A stretch of DNA of 64,000 nucleotides from Deferribacterales bacterium (GTDB lineage: Bacteria > Chrysiogenota > Deferribacteres > Deferribacterales > Geovibrionaceae). The stretch lies in NCBI GenBank assembly GCA_050253075.1, contig JBFWJS010000002.1, positions 288,001-352,000 on the forward strand. Reading direction: 5' to 3'. Below the pieces are notes generated by a model. It had not been told where the DNA came from. It did no database searches and saw only the letters and a program-made list of their open reading frames with translations. Shown one piece after another: positions 7,957 to 22,850 of this stretch; the first letter of the stretch is position 1, and each line of letters begins with the position of its first letter. A program made the translations under genes and the position numbers.

Positions 7957-9060
7957 ATGTCTGAGAACTCTCTGTTTGCAGCAGGGCTCAACAGGCGTGA
8001 TTTTCTGCGTTTAAGCGCAGGACTTACCGCTATGATGGGACTGCCGTATGCAATGCACACTAAGGTAGCCGAGGCTGCCACCGCCGATGACAGACCGCCT
8101 GTTATCTGGCTTCACTTTCAGGAATGTACCGGTTGTTCAGAATCGCTCATCCGCTCCGGTCACCCGGACCCTGCGGCACTTATCCTTGATCTTATATCAC
8201 TGGATTATCATGAGACACTCATGGCCGGCTCCGGACATCAGGCGGAACACTCACTAAAAGAAAGCATGAAAAACAACTGGGGCAACTATATACTTGTTGT
8301 CGAAGGCGCCGTACCACTCGGCGATGACGGAATCTACTGCAAAGTTGCAGGAAAGAAAGCTGTCGATTCACTTAAAGAAGCATCCGAAGGAGCCGCAGCG
8401 GTTATATGTATCGGAACCTGCTCAGCGTTCGGCGGTGTACAGGCTGCAGATCCAAACCCAACAAATGCAGTTTCCGCTTCCAGCCTTGTGAAAGACAGAC
8501 CTGTTATCAACGTGCCCGGATGTCCTCCTAGCCCGTACAATCTGCTTTCCACTATACTTTACTACCTTACATTTAAAAAACTGCCTAAGCTCGATGCCCT
8601 CGGCAGACCTGAATTTGCTTACGGACGCAGAATCCACGAGCACTGCGAACGCAGACCTCACTTCGATGCAGGCCGCTTCGCAGAAGAATTCGGCGACAAA
8701 GGCCACTCTGAAGGCTACTGTCTTTATAAACTCGGCTGCAAAGGCCCTGTAACATTCGCTAACTGTTCCGTACAGAGATTCAACGATGTGGGCGTATGGC
8801 CCGTATCTATGGGTCACCCGTGTATCGGCTGTACAGAGCCGGATGTTATGTTCCATACATCTATATACGACAAGGTTCAGATACACGAAGTCACACCACC
8901 TGACTTCTATCCTAATGCAAAACCTTCCAAACGCGGCAAGGGAGCTGACCCTCTCACCACAGGCGTCGTCGGCGTTGTAGCCGGTGCTGCTATCGGTGCG
9001 AGCGCCATGATGGCGAAAAAGCTGCCTAAGGGGGTCGAAGATGAAGAAGACGAGGCGTGA
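7957..9060 (+). CDS. hybO: [NiFe] hydrogenase small subunit (Hyd-2 type)
   Basis: Tat motif NRRDFL; ECTGCSES, PGCPP, CLYKLGCKGP, HPCIGC; C-terminal TM. Confidence 0.92.
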   Translation: MSENSLFAAGLNRRDFLRLSAGLTAMMGLPYAMHTKVAEAATADDRPPVIWLHFQECTGCSESLIRSGHPDPAALILDLISLDYHETLMAGSGHQAEHSLKESMKNNWGNYILVVEGAVPLGDDGIYCKVAGKKAVDSLKEASEGAAAVICIGTCSAFGGVQAADPNPTNAVSASSLVKDRPVINVPGCPPSPYNLLSTILYYLTFKKLPKLDALGRPEFAYGRRIHEHCERRPHFDAGRFAEEFGDKGHSEGYCLYKLGCKGPVTFANCSVQRFNDVGVWPVSMGHPCIGCTEPDVMFHTSIYDKVQIHEVTPPDFYPNAKPSKRGKGADPLTTGVVGVVAGAAIGASAMMAKKLPKGVEDEEDEA

Positions 9061-9985
9061 TTTTATAAAATCCGCCGCAGCCGGAGGCGCTCTTCTTCTC
9101 TCCCCAATGGGAGCTCATGCAGACGAAACCGACCTTAAGGCGGATGACGAAGCAGTAGGCATGCTTTATGACTCTACGCTCTGCGTAGGCTGCAAGGCGT
9201 GTGTGACCAGATGTAAGCAGGTAAACGACATGGAGGCTGTCTCATCTCCTAATGATAATGACAGACTCTGGGACTCTCCTGATGATCTGGACTACAGAAC
9301 AAGAAACATCATCAAACTTTTCAAAGACGACGAATACTTCTCATACGTGAAGCATCAGTGCATGCACTGTATCAAGCCTTCATGTGTTTCTGCCTGCCCT
9401 GTCAGCGCAATGCAGAAAGAAGAGAAACGCGGTATCGTCTTCTATGACAAAGATAAGTGTATCGGATGCCGTTACTGTCAGGTAGCGTGCCCGTTCAACA
9501 TACCTAAATTTGAGTGGCCGAAACCTTTCCCTAAGATAGTGAAATGCGACCTTTGCAAATACACTAACCTTAAGGTGAAGAACGAACCTGCATGCTGTGA
9601 AACATGCCCTACAAGTGCTGTTATCTACGGTAAGCGTAAAGACCTGCTCAAAGAAGCAAAGATGCGCATGGCCGCCCATCCTGAGAAATATCAGCAGGAG
9701 ATATACGGCGAGCATGAGGTAGGGGGTACAAATGTTATCTACCTCGCAGGCACATCTTTCGAAAACCTCGGCTTCCCTATGCTGGAGAAAGAATCCGCCG
9801 CTGTTATGTCTGAGCACATTCAGCACACTATCTACAAGGGCTTCATAGCTCCTGTGGCTCTTTACGGATTCCTCGCTATGGTCGCTCTGAAAAACAGAAA
9901 GACAGCGCATCAGGTAGAACAGGAACACGAGATAGACCATGAGATAGAAGAAGAACTGAAGAAAAAAGATGAGGGGGATAAGTAA
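9041..9985 (+). CDS. hybA: Hydrogenase-2 4Fe-4S ferredoxin subunit
   Basis: Tat motif TRRDFI, four 4Fe-4S Cys motifs, EHIQHTIYKG before a TM anchor. Confidence 0.92.
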   Translation: MKKTRRDFIKSAAAGGALLLSPMGAHADETDLKADDEAVGMLYDSTLCVGCKACVTRCKQVNDMEAVSSPNDNDRLWDSPDDLDYRTRNIIKLFKDDEYFSYVKHQCMHCIKPSCVSACPVSAMQKEEKRGIVFYDKDKCIGCRYCQVACPFNIPKFEWPKPFPKIVKCDLCKYTNLKVKNEPACCETCPTSAVIYGKRKDLLKEAKMRMAAHPEKYQQEIYGEHEVGGTNVIYLAGTSFENLGFPMLEKESAAVMSEHIQHTIYKGFIAPVALYGFLAMVALKNRKTAHQVEQEHEIDHEIEEELKKKDEGDK

Positions 9986-11184
9986 TGGCCGGTCATCACG
10001 ATGAATATCATATCCACAGGGCAAAAATCCTGACCCCTGCATTCTATGTGCTCCTCTTTTTCACCGCTTTAGGATTTGTCCTTGTCGGTGTACGTTTTGT
10101 AAAAGGTATCGGAGCAGTTTCAAACATGTCTGACGGATACCCATGGGGTATCTGGATCGCCTACGACGTTGCTACCAGTACGGCTCTTGCCTGTGGTGGT
10201 TACGCCATGGCTATCATCATATACATTATGAACCGCATGACATACCACCCGCTGATACGTTCTGCGCTGGTTACAAGTATGTTCGGTTACATGCTCGCCG
10301 GTCTCTCCGTTATGGTGGATATCGGACGCTACTGGAACGCTTACAGTTTCCTCCTGCCTACACGCTGGCAGCCGAACTCTGTAATGTTCGAAGTTGCCGT
10401 GTGTATCATGGCATACAACGTAGTTCTCATGCTGGAAGTTCTCCCTGCTATTCTTGAGAGATTCATCCACGCTGAAACTACAAGGTTCCCCGCTGTTAAG
10501 CGTTTCGCTATGAAAATATATCCGAAGCTGGACAAAGTGCTCATCTTCATCGTGGTACTCGGTATCACCCTGCCGACAATGCACCAGTCCTCACTCGGCT
10601 CTATGCTTATCATCGCAAAGTCAAAGGTGAATCCTATCTGGCACACAGAGTTTCTCCCTCTGCTCTTTGTGATAAACGCGCTTTATATCGGTTACTCCGT
10701 AGTTGTGTTTGAGTCATTCGCATCATCTATGGCATTTAACAGACCGTTCGAAAAAGAAACACAGAGACTTTCAAGGGTTATCCCTTACGTCACTGCAGTA
10801 TGGCTGACACTCCGCTTCTGGGACCTCTATAACAGAGGCCAGCTCGGCGCAGCTTTCGCAGGCGACTATAACTCTATGATGTTCGTGAGTGAGATCGTCC
10901 TCATCACAGGCGGCTCATTCATACTGATGTGGAAGCAGTACAGGTCATCCCCCAGGATGGTCTTCATATCTGCGATGTTCCTCCTTGTGGGGGGCGGCTG
11001 GTATCGTTTCAACGTTTACCTGCTCGGCTTCAACCCGCACGGAAACTGGAGCTACTTTCCGTCTCTGCCGGAATTTTTCATTACTGTCGGTCTCATAGCA
11101 TTTGAGATACTGGGATACATGGTTCTTGTGAAGCTGTTCCCTATTATGCCTAAAGTGCACACAAATAAAGCACAGGCACACTAA
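9985..11184 (+). CDS. hybB: Hydrogenase-2 integral membrane subunit (NrfD/PsrC family)
   Basis: DGYPWGIWIAYD, DIGRYW, LPTMHQSSLG. Confidence 0.92.
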   Translation: MAGHHDEYHIHRAKILTPAFYVLLFFTALGFVLVGVRFVKGIGAVSNMSDGYPWGIWIAYDVATSTALACGGYAMAIIIYIMNRMTYHPLIRSALVTSMFGYMLAGLSVMVDIGRYWNAYSFLLPTRWQPNSVMFEVAVCIMAYNVVLMLEVLPAILERFIHAETTRFPAVKRFAMKIYPKLDKVLIFIVVLGITLPTMHQSSLGSMLIIAKSKVNPIWHTEFLPLLFVINALYIGYSVVVFESFASSMAFNRPFEKETQRLSRVIPYVTAVWLTLRFWDLYNRGQLGAAFAGDYNSMMFVSEIVLITGGSFILMWKQYRSSPRMVFISAMFLLVGGGWYRFNVYLLGFNPHGNWSYFPSLPEFFITVGLIAFEILGYMVLVKLFPIMPKVHTNKAQAH

Positions 11185-11205
11185 ATATTCAGGAGATAAT
11201 TAACA

Positions 11206-12888
11206 ATGGGTAAGAGAATTACTATAGATCCAATTACCAGAATTGAAGGTCACCTCCGCATCGATTTCGAAGTCGACGGCGGTCAGGTTTCAAAAGCATG
11301 GTCCTCTGCACAGATGTGGAGAGGTATCGAAAAGATACTTATCGGTCGCGACCCTAGAGACGCTTGGGTTTTCGCACAGAGATTCTGCGGCGTATGTACA
11401 ACAGTCCACGCTATCAGCTCCATCCGTTCACTCGAGAACGCTTTCAACGTGGAAGTGCCTCTGAACGCTCAGCTCGTGCGTAACATCGTCATCGCTCAGC
11501 ACTCCGTACAGGACCACATAGTGCACTTCTACCACCTCTCGGCTCTTGACTGGGTAGACATCGTAAGCGCACTTTCCGCTGACCCTAAAAAGACAGCACA
11601 GCTCGCTCAGTCTCTTTCCGACTGGCCTGGCAACAGTGTGACAGAATTCAAAGCTGTTAAAGAGAAGCTCACAGCCTTCGTACAGACAGGCAGACTCGGC
11701 ATATTCGGCTCCGGATACTGGGGGCACCCTGCGATGAAGCTCAGCCCGGAAGTAAACCTCATGGCTGCTGCACACTACCTTAAAGCTCTCGACTATCAGA
11801 AAAAAGCAGCTCAGGCTGTTGCTATACTCGGCGGTAAAAACCCACACATACAGAACCTCTGCATGGGCGGTGTTGCCACTGCTATAAACATGGACAACGA
11901 AGCTACACTCAACATGGAGCGCGTTGCACTCATGAAGTCACTTATGACAGAGACAAGAGACTTCGTAGAAAAAGTTCTCTACAACGACGTTATCGCCATC
12001 GCCAGCATGTACCCTGAGTGGTTCAAGTACGGTAAAGGCGTAGATAACTACCTCGCTGTACCTGAATTCCCTCTTGACTCTAAAATGACAAAATTCGATA
12101 TGCGCGGCGGTATCATCCTCGACGGCGATCTTAAAAAGTTTACTCTGCTGAAAGACCACAATGATGCTTCACTCATCAACGGCATCACAGAGTCTACAAA
12201 GCACGCATGGTACAAGGATGACGAACCGAAGAAACCTTGGGACGGCGAAACAGAGCCTTACTACACAGACTTTGACCCGAACGGCAAATACTCATGGTGT
12301 AAAGCTCCTCGTCTCGACGGTAAAGCTATACAGGTCGGACCTGTTGCCCAGATCCTCGCATCATACGTTGCAGGGGACACACATGTTAAGACTCTCGTAG
12401 ACAGCGCATGTAAAAAACTCGGCATCAAAGTAACAGACCTTCAGTCTACAATGGGACGCCACGTAACACGTGCTATGCGCTCCGTTATTATGGCTAACAA
12501 ATCCCTTACATACCTCGACATGCTTATGGAGAACCTTGCTAAGGGAGATACAATCTACGCTAACCATACAGAAATGCCTAAAGGCGAGTATCAGGGCGTA
12601 GGCTTCCACGAAGCTCCTAGAGGAACACTTTCCCACTGGATGCGTGTGGAAAACGGCAAGCTCACAAACTATCAGGCAGTCGTACCTTCAACATGGAATG
12701 CAGGCCCTAGAGACGAAGCAGGCATCGCAGGCCCATACGAGGCAAGCATCATGGGCAACCCTGTGGCAGACCCTGAAAAACCTCTCGAGGTTATCAGAAC
12801 CGTACACTCGTTCGACCCATGTATCGCATGTGCTGTTCACTCCATCGACCCTGACGGTAAAGAGCTCACAAGCGTTAAGGTAAGATAA
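11206..12888 (+). CDS. hybC: [NiFe] hydrogenase large subunit
   Basis: DPITRIEGH, RFCGVC (L1), DPCIACAVH (L2) and a cleavable C-terminal tail. Confidence 0.95.
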   Translation: MGKRITIDPITRIEGHLRIDFEVDGGQVSKAWSSAQMWRGIEKILIGRDPRDAWVFAQRFCGVCTTVHAISSIRSLENAFNVEVPLNAQLVRNIVIAQHSVQDHIVHFYHLSALDWVDIVSALSADPKKTAQLAQSLSDWPGNSVTEFKAVKEKLTAFVQTGRLGIFGSGYWGHPAMKLSPEVNLMAAAHYLKALDYQKKAAQAVAILGGKNPHIQNLCMGGVATAINMDNEATLNMERVALMKSLMTETRDFVEKVLYNDVIAIASMYPEWFKYGKGVDNYLAVPEFPLDSKMTKFDMRGGIILDGDLKKFTLLKDHNDASLINGITESTKHAWYKDDEPKKPWDGETEPYYTDFDPNGKYSWCKAPRLDGKAIQVGPVAQILASYVAGDTHVKTLVDSACKKLGIKVTDLQSTMGRHVTRAMRSVIMANKSLTYLDMLMENLAKGDTIYANHTEMPKGEYQGVGFHEAPRGTLSHWMRVENGKLTNYQAVVPSTWNAGPRDEAGIAGPYEASIMGNPVADPEKPLEVIRTVHSFDPCIACAVHSIDPDGKELTSVKVR

Positions 12889-12890
12889 AA

Positions 12891-13382
12891 ATGCGTACTG
12901 TAGTATTTGGCGCAGGTAACCTCCTCCTTTCAGACGAAGGGCTGGGGGTTCACCTCGTGCGCAGAATGAATGAAAAATATATGCCGTCGTCGGACGTAGA
13001 ATTCTACGACGGCGGCACTATGGGTATTCTCGCCACACATAAGCTGGAAGAGACTGACCATGTCATCATCGTAGACTCCCTGGAGGCCTCAGGCACTCCG
13101 GGCGAGCTGCGTGTGTATGAAAAGAATGACATCATGCTGGACAAGATCCCTGCGAAGATGTCTCCGCATCAGATAGGCCTTCAGGAAGTCCTGACCCTCA
13201 GCGAGCTCCGTGGCAAAGCGCCTGAGACCATCACATTTTACGGTGTGATACCTGCCAGCCTCGACAGCTCAGTAGAGCTCAGCAAAGAGGTAGCAGTAAA
13301 GCTGGACGAGATAGAAGCCCTGATAATAAATGAACTGAGTGAGATGGGAATCGAGCTGAAGCAGTTCGCTGCTGCAGTTTAG
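12891..13382 (+). CDS. hybD: Hydrogenase maturation endopeptidase
   Basis: GNLLLSDEGLG, DGGT, SPHQ motifs. Confidence 0.92.
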   Translation: MRTVVFGAGNLLLSDEGLGVHLVRRMNEKYMPSSDVEFYDGGTMGILATHKLEETDHVIIVDSLEASGTPGELRVYEKNDIMLDKIPAKMSPHQIGLQEVLTLSELRGKAPETITFYGVIPASLDSSVELSKEVAVKLDEIEALIINELSEMGIELKQFAAAV

Positions 13383-13398
13383 GCGATAATAGCACAAT

Positions 13399-13430
13399 AA
13401 AAAACGGCAGGGGATCTCCGCTGCCGTTTT
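13399..13430. terminator. Bidirectional terminator after hybD
   Basis: AAAAAACGGCAG-GGGATCTCCG-CTGCCGTTTT. Confidence 0.75.
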
Positions 13431-13680
13431 CCAGCAAACAAAACGAGAGGTAAGGGCTTGTTTGCTAAACATTTATTCAAATGTGTAATGGCCTAAAAAA
13501 AGCTCTGGAGATATAAGAGGATCTCCAGAGCAAAAAGCGGCGAAACCGCATATGCATCTTGGTTATGATTTCTTATCAACTCGGTAGTCTGATTAAAAGA
13601 GCGGAGGACTTCTCCTCCGCTCAATCAGGTATGTGGCTAAATACTTGCCTATAGTACTTAAACTTAATTCCGAGGAGTTA
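13399..13680 (-). ncRNA. Candidate sigma54-dependent small RNA(s); about 185 nt to the terminator at 13495-13531, about 280 nt on readthrough
   Basis: Lies downstream of a consensus sigma54 promoter, has no credible ORF, and contains several hairpins followed by U-tracts on the minus strand. Confidence 0.55.
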
Positions 13681-13690
13681 CTTTATATAA

Positions 13691-13707
13691 AGCAACGGAC
13701 GTGCCAA
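13691..13707 (-). promoter_or_regulatory. sigma54 (-24/-12) promoter
   Basis: Minus strand reads TTGGCAC-GTCCG-TTGCT, matching TGGCAC-N5-TTGC. Confidence 0.85.
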
Positions 13708-13782
13708 AAACGGCAAAGTTATGTAAAGCACTATAGGCTAAGTATTATTCCGAATGAGATAATTAGTTCACAGACGAAAACA

Positions 13783-13868
13783 TGACGAATATCCGCCATG
13801 GCATTTTTAACCAATTCTTATTTTCTGCATAATTACTAGATATTTAACACGATGGCGAATTTTCGCCG
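13783..13868. promoter_or_regulatory. Pair of candidate enhancer-binding-protein (UAS) sites
   Basis: TGACGAATATCCGCCA (13783-13798) and TGGCGAATTTTCGCCG (13853-13868); a third copy, CGGCGAAAATCCGCCA, at 15291-15306. Confidence 0.55.
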
Positions 13869-13873
13869 TAGGA

Positions 13874-15247
13874 TTATTCTTCGATGAGGCCGTATTTCTC
13901 CAGTTTATAGCGGAGAGTACCTCTCGGAGTATTTAAAAGACGTGACGTGCCGGACACATTCCCTTCGGTGATGTCCAAGGCTTTCATAAGTATCTGTTTC
14001 TCTATTTCCTGCAGTGTCTTATCCAGATCCAGCCCATCTTCGGGGATGTCTATATCACTGCATTTTTTCACTGATCGTCCCTCGGGCTGAAGCTCCACGG
14101 GGAGCATTTCAGGCGTTATGACCTCTGTATTATTCATAATGCATATCCGCTCCACCATATTTTTCAGTTCGCGAATATTTCCCGGCCAGGGGTACTGGCG
14201 AAAAACAGCCAGTGCATCTTTCGAAAAACTTTTAATATTTTTCTTAAAATCTTTATTAAACTTTTTAATGAACATCTCAAGAAGCGGAGCAATGTCCTCT
14301 GCCCTCGCCCTGAGAGGCGGGAGCTCTATGGGGAAAACGTTCAGCCTGTAATAGAGGTCTTCCCTGAAGGTCTTCTCCTCTATAGCTTCTTTCAGGTCTT
14401 TGTTTGTGGCTGCGATGATGCGGACATTTATATCTATGTTCCTTGTACCGCCGAGCCTGCGTATCTTCCTCTCTTCGAGCACACGCAGCAGCTTCACCTG
14501 CAGGTTAAGATCCATCTCGCCCAGCTCGTCGAGGAACACTGTCCCCCCTGCGGCCTCTTCCAGCAGACCTATCTTCCTCACCTTTGCATCGGTGAATGCG
14601 CCCTTTTCATGTCCGAAGAGCTCTGATTCCAGCAGGTTATACGGGAGCGATCCGCAGTTTATATCTACGAAAGGCTTATCCTTTCTGGGTGACAGCATGT
14701 GTATGGCTCTGGCAGCGACTTCCTTACCGGTTCCGCTTTCGCCTGTTATCATGACGGTGGCGTTCTCGTGCTTTGCCACCTCTTCTATCTGTTTGAAAAC
14801 GTTCACCATAGCAACGCTGGAGCCCACTATCTCAGGCAGGTCGGCTATGCCTCCCCTTCTGATGGATTTCAGCTCACGCTTCAGGCTCTGTGTTTCCAGC
14901 GCCAGCCTGACGATGAGGTGTATGGCGTCCGCCTTGAAAGGCTTCTTGATATAGTCGTATGCGCCCATTTTAAGAGCCTCTACGGCGGTCTCTACCGTGC
15001 CGTAGCCTGTTATGATGATGACGAGTATATCAGGGTCTGCTTCTTTGATCTCACGCAGGATATCAAGCCCGCTCTCCTCGCCCAGATTCATATCCAAAAG
15101 GATAAGGTCGGGGTCGTCATTAGCGAGGCGTTCGATGGTCTCCGCTCTGTTCACGGCGGATATCACCTCATAGCCTTTTGATGTGAGGGTGCGTTCTATT
15201 GTCTCTCTGATAAATTGTTCGTCGTCTACGACTAATATTCTTTCCAT
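13874..15247 (-). CDS. sigma54-dependent response regulator (NtrC/AtoC family)
   Basis: REC domain, GESGTGKE, GAFTDA, C-terminal Fis-type HTH. Confidence 0.93.
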   Translation of the reverse strand: MERILVVDDEQFIRETIERTLTSKGYEVISAVNRAETIERLANDDPDLILLDMNLGEESGLDILREIKEADPDILVIIITGYGTVETAVEALKMGAYDYIKKPFKADAIHLIVRLALETQSLKRELKSIRRGGIADLPEIVGSSVAMVNVFKQIEEVAKHENATVMITGESGTGKEVAARAIHMLSPRKDKPFVDINCGSLPYNLLESELFGHEKGAFTDAKVRKIGLLEEAAGGTVFLDELGEMDLNLQVKLLRVLEERKIRRLGGTRNIDINVRIIAATNKDLKEAIEEKTFREDLYYRLNVFPIELPPLRARAEDIAPLLEMFIKKFNKDFKKNIKSFSKDALAVFRQYPWPGNIRELKNMVERICIMNNTEVITPEMLPVELQPEGRSVKKCSDIDIPEDGLDLDKTLQEIEKQILMKALDITEGNVSGTSRLLNTPRGTLRYKLEKYGLIEE

Positions 15248-15307
15248 GGGATATGATTATATGACAAACGAAATAATTAGCAATGGGAAACGGCGAAAAT
15301 CCGCCAC

Positions 15308-17731
15308 TTATTTTAGAGAAAATGTGATAATGAATTCGGTCCCGTTCCCTTTGGTGCTGTTTACGTCTATGACACCCTTGTGATCGGTGATTATATTGTG
15401 AGTAATGGCGAGCCCGAGCCCCGTCCCTTCGCCCTTAGTGGTATAGAAAGGCTCGAATATCAGCTTTATCTTTTCCTCGTCCATACCGACGCCCGTATCT
15501 TTTATATGCACTTTTATTCCTGAGATGGATTTATACGCCTTTATGCTGAGCGTACCGCCATCGGGCATTGCTTCTGCGCCGTTTTTGATGAGGTTCAGCA
15601 GAGCCTGCTTCAGCTTTGCACTCTCCATAGGAAATGGCGGGATGTTCTCTGATATATCTATTTCAAATTTTATATTCTTCTTCTCATACTGTTTCTTCAC
15701 CATGAAGACAATGTCGTCTATAACGGGGGCGATGTCCCCGTCCTTGAGCTCTATACTGGATGCACGGGCAAAGCTGAGCAGCTCTGTTATCAATGCTTCC
15801 AGTCGCTCTATCTCATTAAGCGACCTGCGTATGAGGTCCTGCTCCTCGGGCTTTCCTATCAGCATGTCGTGCAGATCGTCCAGCAGAATGCTGACGCCTG
15901 TCAGCGGGTTTCTAATCTCGTGTGCGAGCCCCGCAGAGAGCCTTCCCAGAGATGCCAGCCTCTCCATACGCTCAAGATGGGCACGCATGCTCATACGCTC
16001 CGTAACATCTTCTATGGTCAGTATCTTACCCTGATAGCTGCCTATGGACAGCGGCAGGACGGCCACACGGAAAATCTTCTTTCTTCCTGCGATGGTCACT
16101 TCGAGGTAATCGTCGAACCTCTGCACGCTGTACTGTTCTATCCCCGAACGCACGTATGTACGTATCTGAGGCAGATTCTCCGCCATTTCGTCAAAATCGA
16201 CCTCTTCTTCAAAGAAATGCACGCCAAAGATGCTTCTGGCGGAAGCGTTCATGAATGTGACCATATTTTCATGGTTTATGGTGATGACACCCGTGTCGAT
16301 ATTTTCAAATACCGTGGTCTTGAATACCTGCTCCCAGAGTAGTTCGTGGCGGTTACGCTCCAGCTCCTCCAGAGAATCCTGAAGATGCTGCCTCTGTTCG
16401 TTCAGGCTGAGAGCCATAGTGTTGAACGATTTCGCCAATACGCCTATCTCGTCGTTGCTCTTAACGTCTGCATATATGTCCAGCTTGCCCGATGCCATCT
16501 CCTTCGTGCTGGCGAGGAGTATGTTAATAGGCTTTACCAGACCTCTCGATATCTTGAAACTAACGTAAAGAACTATCATAAGGACTATTACGACATATAC
16601 CCATGACCTGAATATATAGCTCTTAAACTCGAAGCGGATAGTGTCCGACGTGACCCTTGCTGCCTTGTGGAACATATTTACCTCGGCGCCGATAGCCACC
16701 CCGCCGAATATCCTGTGTCTCTTATACTCTCCGTGTGCGAAAGGGATCGGCGCATAAGCCATGATCCTGGGAACACCGCCCACGTTTGTGACGCTGATAA
16801 CACCGCTTTTGCCAACACGCACGGCACTCGCCGCAGTTGGATAGTTTTTATGTATGAATCCTGAGAAAAGGAGATTGAAAGGACGTGTCCCCTCCTCCTG
16901 CTCCAGTGATGTAAATGGCTCCATAAGATTCCCGTCTTTGTCGTATCCTCTGATGTCTTCCTTCTTCGGGTGGGCTATCATCCAGCCGTCGTCATCAAAA
17001 AGGAATGCATAACTCCCGCTCATATACGGCGTCTTCACGGCAAGCTCCCCTGTGGGGTATATATGCTTTATCAGCTCGTCTATGTGTCTCTGGTCGAGGG
17101 AAAGTATGATAAGACCTATCTGCTTGTCTTCGTCAAAGACCTTTTTGACAAATCTGAATTCTCCCTCATAGTCCTGAGCGGAATTCTTGTCCCTGTACCA
17201 GCCAGACAAGCGGGATACGTATATGTCGTTATCTCTCATAGCCATAGCTTTGGCATAATAATCTTCTGTAAGATACGTGGTGTTTTCAGGCTTTGAGATA
17301 TCTCTCAGCATCTCTGGACGTCCGTGACGGATGCGTATCTTTTCATGCCCTGATGTATCCGCAAAGGCTATCTCGGCATAGAGGGGGACTTCCTTTTTAT
17401 ACTCCACCCCTTTCAGCTCGTCCCACAGGACACCCCTGCGTGTATCGTAAAATTTTATATAGTTAGTGTATGAAGGCGTAACAAGGGCGAGGCTGTCCGC
17501 ATCGCTCTTTATATCGCTGAGGAACATGGATATCTTATCCGCCGATGAATTCGCCACCTGTGCCAGCATATATTCTGTCTGTCCGTCGAGGGCATCGGAC
17601 GCCTTCTGACGCAGATATGTGTCGGAAAGTTTAAGCCCCGCAGATAGATATAGGAAATGGATAATGAGCGGAATAACCGCCAGACCGATGAACGCAAAAA
17701 ATATCTTTGAATAAATGGACATCTTTTTCAT
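15308..17731 (-). CDS. Sensor histidine kinase (periplasmic Cache-like, HAMP, PAS, HisKA, HATPase)
   Basis: Two TMs, HAMP DEIGVLAKSFN, AHEIRNPL, DTGVG, GTGLGL. Confidence 0.92.
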   Translation of the reverse strand: MKKMSIYSKIFFAFIGLAVIPLIIHFLYLSAGLKLSDTYLRQKASDALDGQTEYMLAQVANSSADKISMFLSDIKSDADSLALVTPSYTNYIKFYDTRRGVLWDELKGVEYKKEVPLYAEIAFADTSGHEKIRIRHGRPEMLRDISKPENTTYLTEDYYAKAMAMRDNDIYVSRLSGWYRDKNSAQDYEGEFRFVKKVFDEDKQIGLIILSLDQRHIDELIKHIYPTGELAVKTPYMSGSYAFLFDDDGWMIAHPKKEDIRGYDKDGNLMEPFTSLEQEEGTRPFNLLFSGFIHKNYPTAASAVRVGKSGVISVTNVGGVPRIMAYAPIPFAHGEYKRHRIFGGVAIGAEVNMFHKAARVTSDTIRFEFKSYIFRSWVYVVIVLMIVLYVSFKISRGLVKPINILLASTKEMASGKLDIYADVKSNDEIGVLAKSFNTMALSLNEQRQHLQDSLEELERNRHELLWEQVFKTTVFENIDTGVITINHENMVTFMNASARSIFGVHFFEEEVDFDEMAENLPQIRTYVRSGIEQYSVQRFDDYLEVTIAGRKKIFRVAVLPLSIGSYQGKILTIEDVTERMSMRAHLERMERLASLGRLSAGLAHEIRNPLTGVSILLDDLHDMLIGKPEEQDLIRRSLNEIERLEALITELLSFARASSIELKDGDIAPVIDDIVFMVKKQYEKKNIKFEIDISENIPPFPMESAKLKQALLNLIKNGAEAMPDGGTLSIKAYKSISGIKVHIKDTGVGMDEEKIKLIFEPFYTTKGEGTGLGLAITHNIITDHKGVIDVNSTKGNGTEFIITFSLK

Positions 17732-17851: not shown

Positions 17852-18727
17852 TTATTTCACTACGAGCTTAAGAGCTACAGGAACGTAGGCCTCGACCTTT
17901 TTACCGTCGAGAACAGCTTTCGCAGTATCTACACCCATAGAGCCGATGAAAGCAGGCTGCTGTGCAACAGTTGCAGCAAGCTCGCCGTCTTTAACAGCTT
18001 TTACAGCGTCGTCTGTGGCGTCAAAGCCGACAACGAGTATCTTTCTCTGTGTTCCCTGAATAGCTTTCAGTGCGCCGAGAGCCATTTCGTCGTTATGAGC
18101 GAAAACAGCATCGATAGCAGGCTGAGCCTGAAGGATGTTTTCCATAACGTTCAGACCTTTTGTTCTGTCGAAGTCTGCTGCCTGCCTAGCTACAACTTTC
18201 ACTGCTGATCCTTCGATAGCAGAGTTAAAGCCCTTGCCTCTGTCTCTGGCTGCGGATGTTCCGGGGATACCTTCCAGCTCGACAACATTGCCTTTCTTAC
18301 CCAGCTTTTCCATGATGAACTCGCCTGCCATTTTACCGCCTGCGATGTTGTCGGATGCGATGTGAGAAACTACGTCGCCTCTGTTTGCGCCTCTGTCGAG
18401 TGTGATAACAGGCACTTTAGCTCTGTTTGCCATCTTGATGGCGTTGCCGACTGCATCTGAATCTGTCGGGTTGATGAGGATAGCCGCTACACCTCTGGAG
18501 AGGAGGTCTTCAACGTTTGCTATCTCTTTTGCAGGGTCGTTCTGAGAATCAAGGACGACCAGATCTATTCCAAGCTCTCCTGCTTTGCTCACTGCTCCGT
18601 CTTTCAGAGTGACAAAGAAGGGGTTGTTCAGTGTGGATACCACGAGGCCGACAGTCTTTCCTGCGGCGAGTACGGGCATAGCAGCAAATGCGACCAGCGC
18701 CAGTACTGTTACTAAAATCTTTTTCAT
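17852..18727 (-). CDS. rbsB: Ribose ABC transporter substrate-binding protein
   Basis: [34 protein letters not shown]; signal peptide. Confidence 0.95.
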
Positions 18728-18755
18728 AGCTGACTCCTTATACAAATGTGATTAC

Positions 18756-19694
18756 TCACTTCTTTCTATCCATAAGGACGGCGATGAGTATCACCGCTCC
18801 TTTTGCGATCATCTGATAATATGAAGATACGTTCATGAGATTCAGGGCGTTGTTCAGTATGCCTATGATAAGCGCACCGGTGAATGTGCCGAATATAGTG
18901 CCCAGACCGCCTGCGAGGCTTGTGCCCCCGAGCACAACGGCAGCAATGGCGTCCAGCTCATACCCTGCGCCCGCCGTGGGCTGTGCGGATGAGAGCCTTG
19001 ACGTGAGTATTATCCCCGCTATGGCTGCGGTCAGACCGCTGATGGCATAGACGGCTATCTTCACCCTGCTGACACGCACACCTGAGAGTCTGGATGCCTC
19101 TTCGTTACCGCCTATGGCATACACATATCTGCCGAATCTGGTGTGCTTCAGCACATAATACGACACAGCAAACACCGCTATCATCAGCACCACAGGCACA
19201 GGTATGCCGAAAATGTATCCTGTGCCGAACCATGCATATATATCTGCCGCCTCTTCGTATCCTGTGGATATCGGCTTCCCGTCGGTGAAGACGAGTGTCG
19301 CACCACGAAGGAGCGTCATCCCCACAAGGGTTGCTATGAAAGGCTGCACCTTGCCTTTTGTAATGGCGACACCGGCGAGCATACCTAGTATCGTACCCAG
19401 TGAAAGGGTTGTAAAGAGCGACACGGCAACGCCGTAGTCATGGGCTATCATAAAAGCAGACACGGCACCACATATGGCGAGTATCGACCCGACAGAGAGG
19501 TCTATCCCGCCAGTGAGAATAACAAATGTCATACCCGCAGCGATAACGGCGTTTATGGACGTCTGCCTGAGCACATTCATAATGTTGTTAACTGTCAGGA
19601 ATCTGGGGCTGATCAGGGATACAATAACCGCCAGAATTATCAGCCCTAGCAATGGTCTGAATTTTATAAGCATTTCTTTAGCTGTCATTTTCAT
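18756..19694 (-). CDS. rbsC: Ribose ABC transporter permease
   Basis: GGIDLSVGS, YELDAIAAVVLGGTSL. Confidence 0.93.
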   Translation of the reverse strand: MKMTAKEMLIKFRPLLGLIILAVIVSLISPRFLTVNNIMNVLRQTSINAVIAAGMTFVILTGGIDLSVGSILAICGAVSAFMIAHDYGVAVSLFTTLSLGTILGMLAGVAITKGKVQPFIATLVGMTLLRGATLVFTDGKPISTGYEEAADIYAWFGTGYIFGIPVPVVLMIAVFAVSYYVLKHTRFGRYVYAIGGNEEASRLSGVRVSRVKIAVYAISGLTAAIAGIILTSRLSSAQPTAGAGYELDAIAAVVLGGTSLAGGLGTIFGTFTGALIIGILNNALNLMNVSSYYQMIAKGAVILIAVLMDRKK

Positions 19695-19704
19695 CCGAAC
19701 ACCC

Positions 19705-21216
19705 CTAGCCTGCTCTTTTCGTCAGGTTTTTCATAGCGAAAGCCATTATGCTCTCCTGTGTGGCTTCCTCTTTTGAGAGTTCGCCTGCGACCTCTCCCGA
19801 GCTTATCACCAGTATCCTGTCGCTCATACCAATCACTTCGGGCATTTCGGAGGATATCAGTATTATGGCGAGCCCTTTCTCTTTCAGCTCGTTTATCAGC
19901 TCGTATATCTCTTTCTTCGCACCGACATCCACACCTCTGGTCGGCTCGTCCAGTATGAGCACCTTCGGCTCTGTGACCAGCCCTTTGCCTATGGCGACCT
20001 TCTGCTGATTTCCTCCGCTGAGGTTCACTACCTTCTGCATAGGTCCAGTGGTCTTTATGGACATTTTTTCGATATACATCTTCGAGGCTTCTTCCTCTTC
20101 GCCTGTGGAAATAAATCGGAATATATTCTGAAAGGCTTTCAAAGCGGGGAGAGTTATATTTTCCTTAATGCTCATGCCAAGTATCAGCCCGAGCTGTTTT
20201 CTGTCTTCGGAAACGTAGGATATGCCGTTTTCTATGGCGGATGAAGGGTGATTTATGCGGAGCTCCTTTCCGTCGATGACTATGCGTCCTTTGGAGAGAG
20301 CCATATATCCATAGACAGATTTTGCTATCTCGCTTCTGCCTGAGCCCATCAGCCCTGCGATGCCGAGTATCTCGCCCTTACGAACGGAGAATGTTACGTC
20401 TTTTATCGCCTGATTGGTCAGCCCCTCTACCTCAAACACGACATCGCCGTGCGTCGCTGTCGATATGGGGAAACGCTCGTCGAGAGCACGCCCCACCATA
20501 AGCTGTATGATCTTCTCCTCGGTAAGCTCGCTCACGGGCTTCATATCCACAAATGTGCCGTCACGCAGAACAGTTGCCCTGTCGCAAATATCGAATACTT
20601 CGGAAAGTTTATGAGAAATATAGACGAGTCCTTTCCCCTGACTTTTAAGCTCACGGATCACCTTATACAGGTTCTCCGTTTCCACATCTGTCAGCGAGTC
20701 TGTGGGCTCGTCCATGATGATTATCTTTGCGTTCATGGAGATGGCTTTGGCTATCTCGACTATCTGCGCCTTTCCGACACTGAGTGAAGACACCTTTGTC
20801 AGCGGAGACATCTCCGATTCTCCCAGCATGGCGAGGTATTCGGCTGCCCTTGCATTCATCTCTTTATACTTTATCCTGCCGTATACTGTCACAGGCTCAC
20901 GCCCGATGAATATATTCTCCGCAACGGTCAGCTCCGGCACAAGGTTCAGCTCCTGATGGATTATCGCTATCCCCTTTTTCTGTGCGTCTTTAGGGTCTCT
21001 GAGGTTCAGCGGTTCGCCTTCTAAGAATATCTCTCCGCCGTCTTTGGTATATACACCGCTGAGGATCTTCATCAGGGTGGATTTACCCGCCCCGTTCTCG
21101 CCCAGCAGAGCCATAATCTCCCCCGCATAGATATTGAACGAGACATCACCGAGAGCCTTTACACCGGGGAATCCCTTCACAATGTTCTTCATCTCCAGCA
21201 TTGGCTTGGCACTCAT
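19705..21216 (-). CDS. rbsA: Ribose ABC transporter ATP-binding protein (two ABC domains)
   Basis: GENGAGKST, LSGGNQQK, DEPTRGVDVGAK; TGATG coupling with rbsD. Confidence 0.93.
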   Translation of the reverse strand: MSAKPMLEMKNIVKGFPGVKALGDVSFNIYAGEIMALLGENGAGKSTLMKILSGVYTKDGGEIFLEGEPLNLRDPKDAQKKGIAIIHQELNLVPELTVAENIFIGREPVTVYGRIKYKEMNARAAEYLAMLGESEMSPLTKVSSLSVGKAQIVEIAKAISMNAKIIIMDEPTDSLTDVETENLYKVIRELKSQGKGLVYISHKLSEVFDICDRATVLRDGTFVDMKPVSELTEEKIIQLMVGRALDERFPISTATHGDVVFEVEGLTNQAIKDVTFSVRKGEILGIAGLMGSGRSEIAKSVYGYMALSKGRIVIDGKELRINHPSSAIENGISYVSEDRKQLGLILGMSIKENITLPALKAFQNIFRFISTGEEEEASKMYIEKMSIKTTGPMQKVVNLSGGNQQKVAIGKGLVTEPKVLILDEPTRGVDVGAKKEIYELINELKEKGLAIILISSEMPEVIGMSDRILVISSGEVAGELSKEEATQESIMAFAMKNLTKRAG

Positions 21217-21611
21217 CAGAACACCACTCCCGAATGCAGTATAACATTCGCATAAGGCGTGCATTCGCCTGTTCTTATCACAGCTTTGGCTTTCTTTGTG
21301 AGTTCTTTGAAATCCTCGTGGGACACATAGTGGTCTTCAGCCCCTTTGAGCTGTTTCTTGACGGCTTTTTCTATTGATGGATTATTAAAGTTTATCTCGT
21401 TTGCCAGAGTGTACTTCTCCACCTGAAGCTCCGAGACGACATTTTCCAAAACAGAGAGAAAGTCAGGCAGACCTTTACAAACGGCAAGATCAATTCGCTC
21501 CACACCGTCAGGTATGGGCAGTCCCGCATCGGCTATTACTATCATGTCCGTATGCCCCATCTCAGCGATAACAGCAGAGATACGGCTGTTTAAAAGTTTG
21601 CCTTTTTTCAT
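21216..21611 (-). CDS. rbsD: D-ribose pyranase
   Basis: [22 protein letters not shown]. Confidence 0.95.
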
Positions 21612-21660
21612 AGTCGACCCTCTCTATATATAAGAATACCAAAGTACACAAACATGGCAA

Positions 21661-21696
21661 CTAAAACTTTTAGCAAATTTTACTAAAAATTTTAGT
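21661..21696. promoter_or_regulatory. Tandem palindromes, candidate operator for the LacI-family regulator
   Basis: CTAAAACTTTTAG (21661-21673) and ACTAAAAATTTTAGT (21682-21696) between divergent rbsD and the regulator gene. Confidence 0.5.
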
Positions 21697-21800
21697 TCAT
21701 CTCACAAAAACATGTTATAATGTGTAATAGAAGATATCCCGATGTTTATCTATTTAATGCTAAGTGCTAAACAAATATAGACAAAACCAAGCAGAAGACT

Positions 21801-22850
21801 ATGAGCAAAAACATAACAGTAACAGAGATAGCAAAATTAGCAGAAGTTTCACCCTCCACGGTCTCCCTCGTTTTAAACGGTAAGCAGGGGGTGGGGAGTG
21901 AAGTACGTGAAAAGGTTCTGAAAATAGCCCGTGAGCACAACTATAAAGGGATGACAAGCGGCGGACTCAGCAGAAAGAACAAGACCATCTTATTTGTAAA
22001 CATAGTAAAACACGGACAGATACTTAATAAAAACCATAAGGCGTTCGTCGCCGACTATATAAACGGCGCAGTGACCGAAGCAGAGGAGAACGGCTATGCA
22101 CTAGAGGTGACAGCCTTCGACAGCTTCGACCCTGTGACGCTCACAGAGCACATAAACGCATCATACGCATCAGGCGCACTGATACTGGGCACAGAGCTGG
22201 AGGAAGCAGACATACTGCACCTCGCCACAGTCAAGATACCCGTCGTTTTTATAGACGTGCTCTCCCCTCATCTCCCCTTCGACTTTGTAGACATGAACAA
22301 CGACTCGTCTGTCTTCAACATCATGTCATATATAAAAGAGATGGGACATACATCCACAGGAATAGTGACAGGCTCTCATATCACGAGCAATTTCGCCCAC
22401 AGGATGCGCAGCTACGAGCGGTCTCTCGAACTGCTCGGAATAGATTACGACAAAAATTTCGTCTTCACCGTTAATTCGAAATATGAAAAAGCATATGAAG
22501 ACATGAGCACAATACTGGATAAAAAGCCGAAGATGCCAACAGTGCTCTTCTGCGTAAACGACATAATAGCCCTCGGCTGTATGAAAGCACTGAAAGAACA
22601 CGGATACCGCATACCCGAGGATATATCAATAGCCGGCTTTGACAACCTTGCCATGAGCTCTATGGCAGAACCGCCGTTAAGCACTGTAAAAGTATCCAAG
22701 AGAAGGATAAGCATAGCCGCTGTCGATCTTCTGCTTAAGCGGATGAACAGCGGAGAACGCACCCCATATGAAAAAATAATGATAGGCGGTGAAGTGATGA
22801 AAAGAGAGAGCATAAGGGACATGAAAGCCCCTCAGAAGGAGGAATCATGA
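21801..22850 (+). CDS. LacI-family transcriptional regulator of the ribose locus
   Basis: HTH IAKLAEVSPSTVSLVLN; IPEDISIAGFD, PPLSTV. Confidence 0.9.
   Translation: MSKNITVTEIAKLAEVSPSTVSLVLNGKQGVGSEVREKVLKIAREHNYKGMTSGGLSRKNKTILFVNIVKHGQILNKNHKAFVADYINGAVTEAEENGYALEVTAFDSFDPVTLTEHINASYASGALILGTELEEADILHLATVKIPVVFIDVLSPHLPFDFVDMNNDSSVFNIMSYIKEMGHTSTGIVTGSHITSNFAHRMRSYERSLELLGIDYDKNFVFTVNSKYEKAYEDMSTILDKKPKMPTVLFCVNDIIALGCMKALKEHGYRIPEDISIAGFDNLAMSSMAEPPLSTVKVSKRRISIAAVDLLLKRMNSGERTPYEKIMIGGEVMKRESIRDMKAPQKEES

Follow-up and report, generated by a model that had tools for sequence, protein, structure and literature searches.

Within a 64,000-nt window of a Deferribacterales bacterium genome (GCA_050253075.1, contig JBFWJS010000002.1, positions 288,001-352,000 of the forward strand), the DNA between an NtrC-type response regulator gene and the convergent gene hybD probably holds an independent gene encoding a regulatory RNA of about 187 nt, which would be activated by the adjacent regulator through sigma-54 and would act in trans. 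The gene is well supported, by genome comparison, as a real, conserved and previously undescribed example of the known sigma-54 small-RNA arrangement found at crcZ-cbrB and qrr1-luxO. Its promoter and enhancer sites, the conservation of the unit, its structure and the lack of a conserved open reading frame (ORF) are evident in the sequences; the 5′ end of the RNA and its dependence on the regulator are predicted. A sequence-only reading of this stretch had proposed an undescribed non-coding RNA as the regulator's output, and the proposal agrees with what we find: the promoter and paired palindromes at all 15 loci that carry the regulator or an orthologue, the RNA in eight genomes, and no match in Rfam.

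In the mechanism that we propose, the phosphorylated regulator would bind two TGGC-N8-GCCA palindromes at about -180 and -110 and, once bound, would activate sigma-54 RNA polymerase at TGGCAC-N5-TTGCT; transcription would stop at a hairpin followed by U7 (13531-13495), and the RNA would pair in trans with mRNAs, probably with Hfq, using AGAUGCAUA and its flanks as the likely contact surface. The transcriptional half of this scheme (regulator, palindromes, sigma-54 polymerase, terminator) appears well supported by the comparison of loci described below.

Promoter and enhancer sites behind the regulator gene

13691..13706, minus strand: sigma-54 promoter, exact -24/-12 consensus TGGCAC-N5-TTGCT, reading TGGCACGTCCGTTGCT
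13853..13868, no strand: enhancer (upstream activator sequence) site 1, TGGC-N8-GCCA palindrome centred at about -180, immediately past the regulator stop codon
13783..13798, no strand: enhancer (upstream activator sequence) site 2, TGGC-N8-GCCA palindrome centred at about -110
13874..15247, minus strand: NtrC-type response regulator gene (Pfam: receiver, sigma-54 AAA+, HTH_8)
15291..15306, no strand: third site of the TGGC-N8-GCCA type, within the 60 nt (15248-15307) that separate the kinase and regulator genes, a candidate autoregulatory site

The sigma-54 promoter that had been read by eye was confirmed as an exact consensus match at 13706-13691, 167 nt past the regulator stop codon on the minus strand, and it is unique in the window, where the pattern TGGCAC-N5-TTGCW occurs once against 0.05 expected and at least once in 5 of 100 shuffles. 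Exact consensus matches number 10 across the whole genome, which encodes rpoN (above the curated cut-off), and the pattern reversed as a control matches once. Measured from the GC of the -12 element, +1 falls at about 13681-13679, and all enhancer positions are given relative to this predicted start.

Of the 15 other genomes in the family, 14 have an orthologue of the regulator (63-75% identity); in the remaining one (G002) the nearest match is a 41% paralogue. At all 15 loci, the window included, a sigma-54 promoter follows 167-1110 nt past the regulator stop codon, preceded by two TGGC-N8-GCCA palindromes with an A/T-rich centre. Both palindromes carry at most one mismatch at 14 of the 15 loci, the second site of L019 having two, and their positions are fixed within each group of loci: about -180/-110 in the window, G008 and G013 (in the latter two, site 1 at -179 and site 2 at -108), about -174/-133 in five loci where the cassette is inverted, and about -249/-167 in seven loci where it precedes a transporter gene. 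Site 2 of the window overlaps a terminator-like hairpin (13800-13781). When the consensus was sought with mismatches 30-320 nt upstream of 146 loosely defined sigma-54-like promoters of the window's genome, two palindromes were found before one of them (the RNA promoter), a single site before three, and none before the rest; by this count the RNA promoter seems to be the regulator's sole sigma-54 target in this genome.

Sites of the same type also stand 50-100 nt before the regulator start codon at 11 of the 15 loci. The operator of an enhancer-binding protein is classically recognized by its linkage to the regulator, its presence before the regulator's own gene and its pairing at enhancer distance from a sigma-54 promoter, and from this co-occurrence we infer that the palindromes are the operator of the adjacent regulator. 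Just downstream of the third site (15291-15306), TTGCTA-N16-TATAAT can be read by eye and may be an internal sigma-70 promoter subject to autoregulation. A perfect TGGCGAAAAACAGCCA also lies within the regulator coding sequence at 14196-14211, some 520 nt upstream of the RNA start; it has no counterpart at the other 14 loci and is probably due to chance.

The loop of the regulator that contacts sigma-54 reads GAFTDA, where the canonical form is GAFTGA, and GAFTDA is common to all 15 orthologues. Several paralogues of the order have GAFTDA as well, others retain GAFTGA, and one has GAFTNA. The best NCBIfam match of the regulator is AtoC, at 458 bits under a 714-bit cut-off.

Extent, structure and conservation of the RNA unit

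13495..13681, minus strand: predicted small RNA (about 187 nt), running from the +1 given by promoter geometry to the end of the terminator U-run
13637..13661, minus strand: stem-loop 1, present in minimum-free-energy and centroid structures, variable among homologues
13589..13628, minus strand: stem-loop 2 (central), core GAGCGGAGGA/UCCUCCGCUC at 13622-13599, then UUUU, with a CUGAUU/AAUCAG extension
13551..13559, minus strand: AGAUGCAUA, the sole invariant unpaired element, RNA positions 123-131
13537..13549, minus strand: stem-loop 3 (GCGG-loop-CCGC), stem of invariant sequence (GGCGG/CCGCU)
13495..13531, minus strand: stem-loop 4 and U7, intrinsic terminator by terminator scan and homologue alignment
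13400..13484, no strand: three further hairpins predicted by folding (about 13484-13469, 13467-13433 and 13431-13400), outside the conserved RNA

The conserved unit consists of the two palindromes, the sigma-54 promoter, the RNA of about 187 nt and its terminator. Using a covariance model of the RNA 3′ half (R1, the 3′ 85 nt), we found the RNA as a single copy in eight of the 16 genomes of the family, and in eight of 63 Deferribacterales genomes, with scores of 80.9 bits in the window and 84-107 bits in the homologues. The conservation in relatives on which the sequence-only reading depended is thus present for both promoter and RNA unit in these eight genomes, namely the window's own and all seven genomes of one other genus; named records with the same sequence are Seleniivibrio or unclassified Deferribacteraceae/Deferribacterales. 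A second R1 match in G006 (31 bits) proved to be the terminator behind a pnp-like gene. The layout of the window, convergent hydrogenase genes included, recurs in G008 and G013, and in the other five of the seven Seleniivibrio-type genomes the whole cassette (enhancers, promoter, RNA, terminator) is inverted and points back at the regulator. The gene divergent from the inverted cassettes had no Pfam match in its first 326 aa.

Outside these genomes, searches added no members. BLAST of the 491-nt spacer matched none of 40 relatives; although the spacer lies beyond BLAST recognition, AGAUGCAUA, stem-loop 3 and the terminator architecture persist. The Infernal search that had been suggested matched no Rfam family (cmscan of 12800-14300 against all 4,227 Rfam 15 models, E up to 10); its nine weak matches were all under gathering scores, and none was Qrr or GlmY/GlmZ. 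When the conserved core together with stem-loop 3 was sought as an exact pattern, genome contigs gave 14 loci, six of them real and all of these from Deferribacterales, and metagenome contigs gave nine, none of them real; the false matches had no sigma-54 promoter and scored at most 22.4 bits with R1. Coding DNA conserved among Methylocapsa, Methylocella and other Alphaproteobacteria (L050, L051, L057, L059-L061, L064, L066, L070) matches the pattern as well; it is unrelated to the RNA, having neither sigma-54 promoter nor model match.

The stretch spanning -24 element and U-run measures 212 nt in the window and 216-227 nt in the seven homologues, and RNA lengths range over 187-202 nt among the eight genomes. 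The 187-nt RNA folds with z = -5.9, no shuffle of 200 folding as well, and representatives of the three sequence subtypes gave z = -5.9, -5.2 and -4.2 against dinucleotide shuffles. Terminator-like sites by a consensus scan numbered four (13622-13599, 13549-13537, 13531-13502 and 13800-13781), every one of them on the minus strand, versus 1.1 +/- 1.1 in shuffles. All eight RNAs share one architecture, in which a short unpaired 5′ stretch is followed by a variable hairpin, a strong central one, a linker, a small hairpin and the terminator. At the place of stem-loop 2, the homologues have a hairpin of other sequence (GCGGGC/GCCCGC) that no U-run follows, and in the window's fold the UUUU after the core can pair into the stem extension. 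The unpaired linker is 35-40 nt long and ends in AGAUGCAUA, the only 9-mer common to all eight RNAs, whose first base is at position 123, 131 or 130, depending on the subtype.

The stem-loop 3 helix is 97% paired, with one pair showing a compensatory change and five of seven pairs never varying; the terminator stem-loop 4 shows compensatory changes in four of nine pairs. For the 3′ module as a whole, 96.3% of cells are paired and five of 16 pairs carry a compensatory change, with none of 500 shuffles as high, in an alignment of five distinct rows from three subtypes that was itself fitted to the structure by the model and in which four of the five covarying pairs lie in the terminator. Controls with the partner strand slid gave 27-58% paired.

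The sequence-only reading had seen at least six hairpins, four of them followed by U-runs, as belonging to one small RNA or to nested isoforms, of about 85, 150, 185 and 280 nt. The terminator scan and folding reproduce the hairpins themselves, but in G008 and G013, despite the shared synteny, nothing corresponds to those below 13495, so that two separate things had been joined. Only the end at about 187 nt corresponds to a conserved terminator, and the isoforms remain conjecture: the hairpin at 13622-13599, which would end the 85-nt form, lacks the U-run in relatives, leaving such an isoform after the central hairpin possible in the window's genome only, and the end of the 280-nt form falls in non-conserved DNA at the terminator of hybD. 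There, the hairpin at 13431-13400 can terminate hybD on the plus strand, since an A-run precedes it and a U-run follows, and it is probably a bidirectional terminator that also serves that gene.

The arrangement of the hairpins bears on whether the promoter might instead act by antisense read-through or transcriptional interference on its convergent gene, which would be hybD/hybC in the window and the regulator 3′ end at the inverted loci. The unit does converge on the hydrogenase operon in three of the eight genomes and on the regulator gene in the remaining five, and stem-loops 2 and 3 are weak terminators. The conserved terminator, however, is strong (9-11 pairs followed by U6-7), two more hairpins lie beyond it in the window, and the convergent partner varies between genomes while the RNA is kept, all of which makes this explanation very improbable.

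The claim that no credible ORF follows the promoter also stood. Between 13383 and 13873 there are only ORFs of 31-67 aa, and the candidates on the sense strand lack a Shine-Dalgarno sequence, cross terminators and are not conserved among the eight RNAs. Hints of a small protein can be assembled from the homologues, in which a GGGGGAG tract is followed by GTG or TTG, frames through stem-loop 2 yield a shared peptide CPLTG in both Seleniivibrio-type subtypes, and an AUG within the invariant 9-mer opens MH(R/M)R... in all eight. Yet the CPLTG frame has no counterpart in the window, and translation in the two subtypes would have to begin at different codons, one of which adjoins the G-tract; the MHRR frame lacks a Shine-Dalgarno sequence, crosses the terminator and is frame-shifted in the window; and the shared residues coincide with conserved stem nucleotides. 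We find it hardly credible that the transcript encodes a small protein.

Candidate targets and mode of action

How the RNA would act is less clear from the sequences than how it would be made. A 3′ hairpin with a U-tail is the usual handle for Hfq, and the window's genome has three Hfq-domain matches as well as csrA. Beside a normal hfq (G000:C8:51337-51522), there is a 178-aa open frame with two tandem Hfq-domain matches (G000:C1:404587-405018; L090/L091). The sequence-only reading had the RNA occlude ribosome-binding sites through CU-rich tracts resembling anti-Shine-Dalgarno sequences. Such tracts are present in the window sequence, but they are not conserved in the seven homologues, whose middle part is G-rich (GGGGGAG), and with AGAUGCAUA as the sole invariant unpaired element that mode of action is not upheld.

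Several points weigh against the scheme proposed above. Transcription of the RNA is itself a prediction from its sequence features. With three sequence subtypes only among the eight genomes, few independent covariation events are represented, and much of the covariation lies within the terminator, which any transcription unit would keep. The 5′ parts differ between subtypes and the 5′ halves align poorly, which is unusual for a seed-bearing region. At translation starts, the complement of the invariant core is not enriched (20 versus 23.6 expected), and among the 40 genome-wide occurrences of the exact 9-mer complement none stands out. A duplex scan of three unpaired RNA segments against some 2,950 crudely called start regions, in which target accessibility was ignored, gave top predictions with z = -4.4 to -4.7 that form a heterogeneous set (a radical SAM enzyme, malate dehydrogenase, a TRAP DctM subunit, a 2-oxoacid:ferredoxin oxidoreductase subunit, NhaA and others) rather than a coherent list of targets. 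Two specific candidates were rejected: pairing with the mRNA leader of the DASS transporter described below, for which the best local duplexes (-15.9 to -20.7 kcal/mol) equal those with shuffled leaders in the six genomes that have both genes, and feedback on the regulator start region, where the window RNA reaches -21.2 versus -15.6 +/- 1.9 in shuffles, with the other seven of the eight RNAs at shuffle level.

The lack of an mRNA from these searches also fits an RNA that sequesters a protein (Hfq, CsrA or another) in the manner of CrcZ or CsrB, with AGAUGCAUA and stem-loop 3 as the binding site. The presence of hfq and csrA accords with this, as does a stem of invariant sequence in which five of seven pairs never vary, a pattern that suits sequence-specific recognition by a protein; and the nearest architectural precedent, crcZ behind cbrB, is reported to be a protein sponge (PMC8871633). 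Known sponges, on the other hand, have many repeated motifs, of the kind that CsrB/RsmZ carry as GGA in hairpin loops, whereas GGA occurs 2-4 times per RNA here, about chance level in all eight. Runs of A-R-N triplets are absent from two of the eight RNAs, and in at most three of the eight are they matched by fewer than 10% of shuffles (14-45 of 500). These counts speak against a CsrB-like or CrcZ-like sponge, though a protein ligand bound at a single site would be compatible with them, and the RNA is short (187-202 nt), with one conserved element and no repeat array. We regard sequestration of a protein as unlikely and favour pairing with mRNAs.

Transporter loci, known counterparts and neighbouring genes

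The cassette serves different genes in different lineages, as judged from its downstream neighbours, since at seven of the 15 orthologous-regulator loci its promoter is followed by a Shine-Dalgarno sequence and a gene for a DASS anion symporter (PF00939; TIGR00785 at 171 bits, under the 198.6-bit cut-off, on a partial protein). Of the genomes with these seven transporter loci, two belong to the same genus as the window, one to a second genus and four to a third; in the window and throughout a fourth genus (seven genomes), ORF-poor DNA ending in a hairpin and U-run lies behind the promoter. Two tandem DASS paralogues with 74-77% identity to the query stand downstream of the regulator in the four genomes of the third genus (L075-L078, L085-L087). 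Elsewhere in the genome, a DASS orthologue is present in six of the seven Seleniivibrio-type genomes, where the 800 nt before it hold no sigma-54 promoter or palindrome and a TTGATT-N16/17-TATAAT-like sigma-70 promoter can be read by eye. No DASS orthologue was found in the window's genome with the query used.

In a maximum-likelihood tree of the 15 regulators and four outgroup paralogues, the 15 form a clade (100/100), and within it the eight RNA-linked regulators form another (100/99), despite the window's genus including two transporter-type genomes. Four of 15 outgroup loci were used, a fifth having given no ORF by the filter. The tree was rooted at the midpoint and does not resolve the base of the 15-clade, so that it formally leaves the ancestral state undecided; outgroup regulators of other families have unrelated neighbours and give no indication of it. 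As a tentative reading, though one we take seriously, the cassette was re-aimed from the DASS gene to a newly arisen small-RNA gene, and the pathway in this genome now has the RNA as its only output, because the transporter was not found and a single sigma-54-like promoter carries paired sites.

The same comparisons could be taken to mean that the promoter is a relic, the DASS gene having been lost or moved, and that the cassette fires a functionless transcript into terminators that protect the convergent neighbours. This would account for the cassette driving the DASS gene at seven of 15 loci, for the DASS gene standing elsewhere under no recognizable sigma-54 control in six of the seven Seleniivibrio-type genomes or escaping detection in the window's genome, for the terminators that follow the promoter, and for target searches that found nothing. 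Decay would be expected of a relic, however, and here two genera with regulators only 73-75% identical and an otherwise unalignable spacer retain the exact promoter, both enhancers, the length of the RNA, the 9-mer and stem-loop 3. The cassette also stayed intact through inversion in five genomes, and the single clade of RNA-linked regulators implies that the state has been kept since their common ancestor. We consider a relic decidedly unlikely.

That the kinase and regulator together feed the RNA, as had been supposed, is supported as regards the regulator; the kinase is no constant partner. The kinases of the window and the transporter loci are long and can be aligned over residues 325-807 (42-48% identity), full-length relatives being found only at transporter-type loci. 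At all seven Seleniivibrio-type loci (L011-L017), only the last 200-250 kinase residues align, and the two loci with ORFs listed have a HisKA-HATPase core with no sensor or membrane part (216 aa in G008, 304 aa in G010). The system's constant core thus comprises the regulator and its sites, together with the promoter and the RNA. In G010, the kinase core lies directly after the 3′ end of a methyl-accepting chemotaxis protein gene.

If this account is true, these genomes would offer a natural series for studying how a transcriptional output turns post-transcriptional, from a full sensor kinase with a transporter, through a full sensor kinase with the RNA, to a sensor-less kinase core with the RNA. 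The comparison of sister genomes would make it a concrete case of pathway output shifting from a protein gene to a regulatory RNA, and the DASS gene at sister loci hints that the RNA is tied to carboxylate or anion uptake physiology. Deferribacterales are anaerobic respirers, and the regulatory DNA is unusually legible here (a promoter, two enhancers, a probable autoregulatory site). The system should be readily testable in cultured relatives or with a heterologous reporter.

Sigma-54 small RNAs beside their activators are known from Vibrio quorum sensing, Pseudomonas carbon catabolite control and enterobacterial cell-envelope sugar synthesis, and to our knowledge all well-studied cases are proteobacterial. 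In Vibrio, qrr1 adjoins luxO. In Enterobacteria, GlrK/GlrR (QseE/QseF) is an NtrC-type two-component system whose main direct target is the neighbouring sigma-54-dependent small RNA GlmY, which acts by protein mimicry in the GlmZ/RapZ circuit. CrcZ is longer than the RNA described here, and its repeated A-rich motifs titrate Hfq/Crc. In DctB/DctD-dctA, a kinase and an NtrC-type regulator activate the sigma-54 promoter of a transporter gene.

Our RNA shares the general plan of these small RNAs, namely a sigma-54 promoter, putative sites for an enhancer-binding activator, its own terminator and conservation as a unit. The likeness to CrcZ is closest in placement: according to PMC8871633, crcZ of Pseudomonadaceae is a separate unit downstream of cbrAB, with a sigma-N promoter that CbrB activates directly. 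Both are small-RNA genes standing as their own unit directly behind an NtrC-type regulator, with a sigma-54 promoter and upstream sites, and in the window a terminator-like hairpin fills part of the 167 nt between regulator stop codon and promoter. The two differ in that our RNA has no Rfam match to CrcZ/CrcY/CrcX and its A-R-N runs are absent or non-significant in most of the eight RNAs, and in that CbrB has many other targets, versus one promoter with paired sites here, in a different phylum. Qrr RNAs are likewise sigma-54-dependent and driven by LuxO (bioRxiv 10.1101/2021.07.01.450815), a likeness that extends to the NtrC-type regulator, whose activating role is a prediction in our case. 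Compared with them, our RNA again lacks an Rfam match, is present in one copy instead of four or five, is twice as long and has another conserved element, with no quorum-sensing genes seen near it in the window. Nor was there an Rfam match to GlmY/GlmZ or anything of the GlmZ/RapZ circuit in view. By these comparisons, the RNA is a member of none of the Qrr, CrcZ and GlmY families. The transporter-type loci, for their part, resemble DctB/DctD-dctA and MifS/MifR-type systems, with a kinase, an NtrC-type regulator and the sigma-54 promoter of a carboxylate/anion transporter gene; the difference in the window and the Seleniivibrio-type genomes is that the driven gene is a non-coding RNA. A literature search, largely without subscription journals and judged by titles and abstracts, found no publication on this RNA or on small RNAs in Deferribacteres, Seleniivibrio, Denitrovibrio or Geovibrio, and no described sigma-54-dependent riboregulator from Deferribacterota.

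Two protein-coding genes flank the region on either side of the regulator and RNA unit:

15308..17731, minus strand: sensor histidine kinase gene, 807 aa (Pfam: dCache_1, HAMP, PAS, HisKA, HATPase_c)
12891-13382, plus strand: hybD (Pfam HycI), convergent with the RNA unit

The sensor domain of the kinase had no informative relative among solved structures (best E = 0.05); its dCache domain covers residues 40-340, approximately. On the far side of the RNA, hybD closes a hydrogenase-2-type operon (7957-13382, hybO-A-B-C-D-type by Pfam) composed of a small subunit with Tat signal, a 4Fe-4S protein, an NrfD-type membrane subunit, an NiFe large subunit and the maturation protease. The gene for a ribose-binding protein beside the kinase was considered as a component of the system and set aside: because it is the rbsB of a complete rbsD-rbsA-rbsC-rbsB operon (17852-22850, minus strand), with a divergent LacI/RbsR-type repressor gene, we view it as a separate and probably unrelated unit. 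RbsB, RbsC and RbsD exceed their NCBIfam cut-offs, and RbsA reaches 687 bits, under its 745-bit cut-off. A ribose operon is unexpected company for the hydrogenase locus of an anaerobic respirer.

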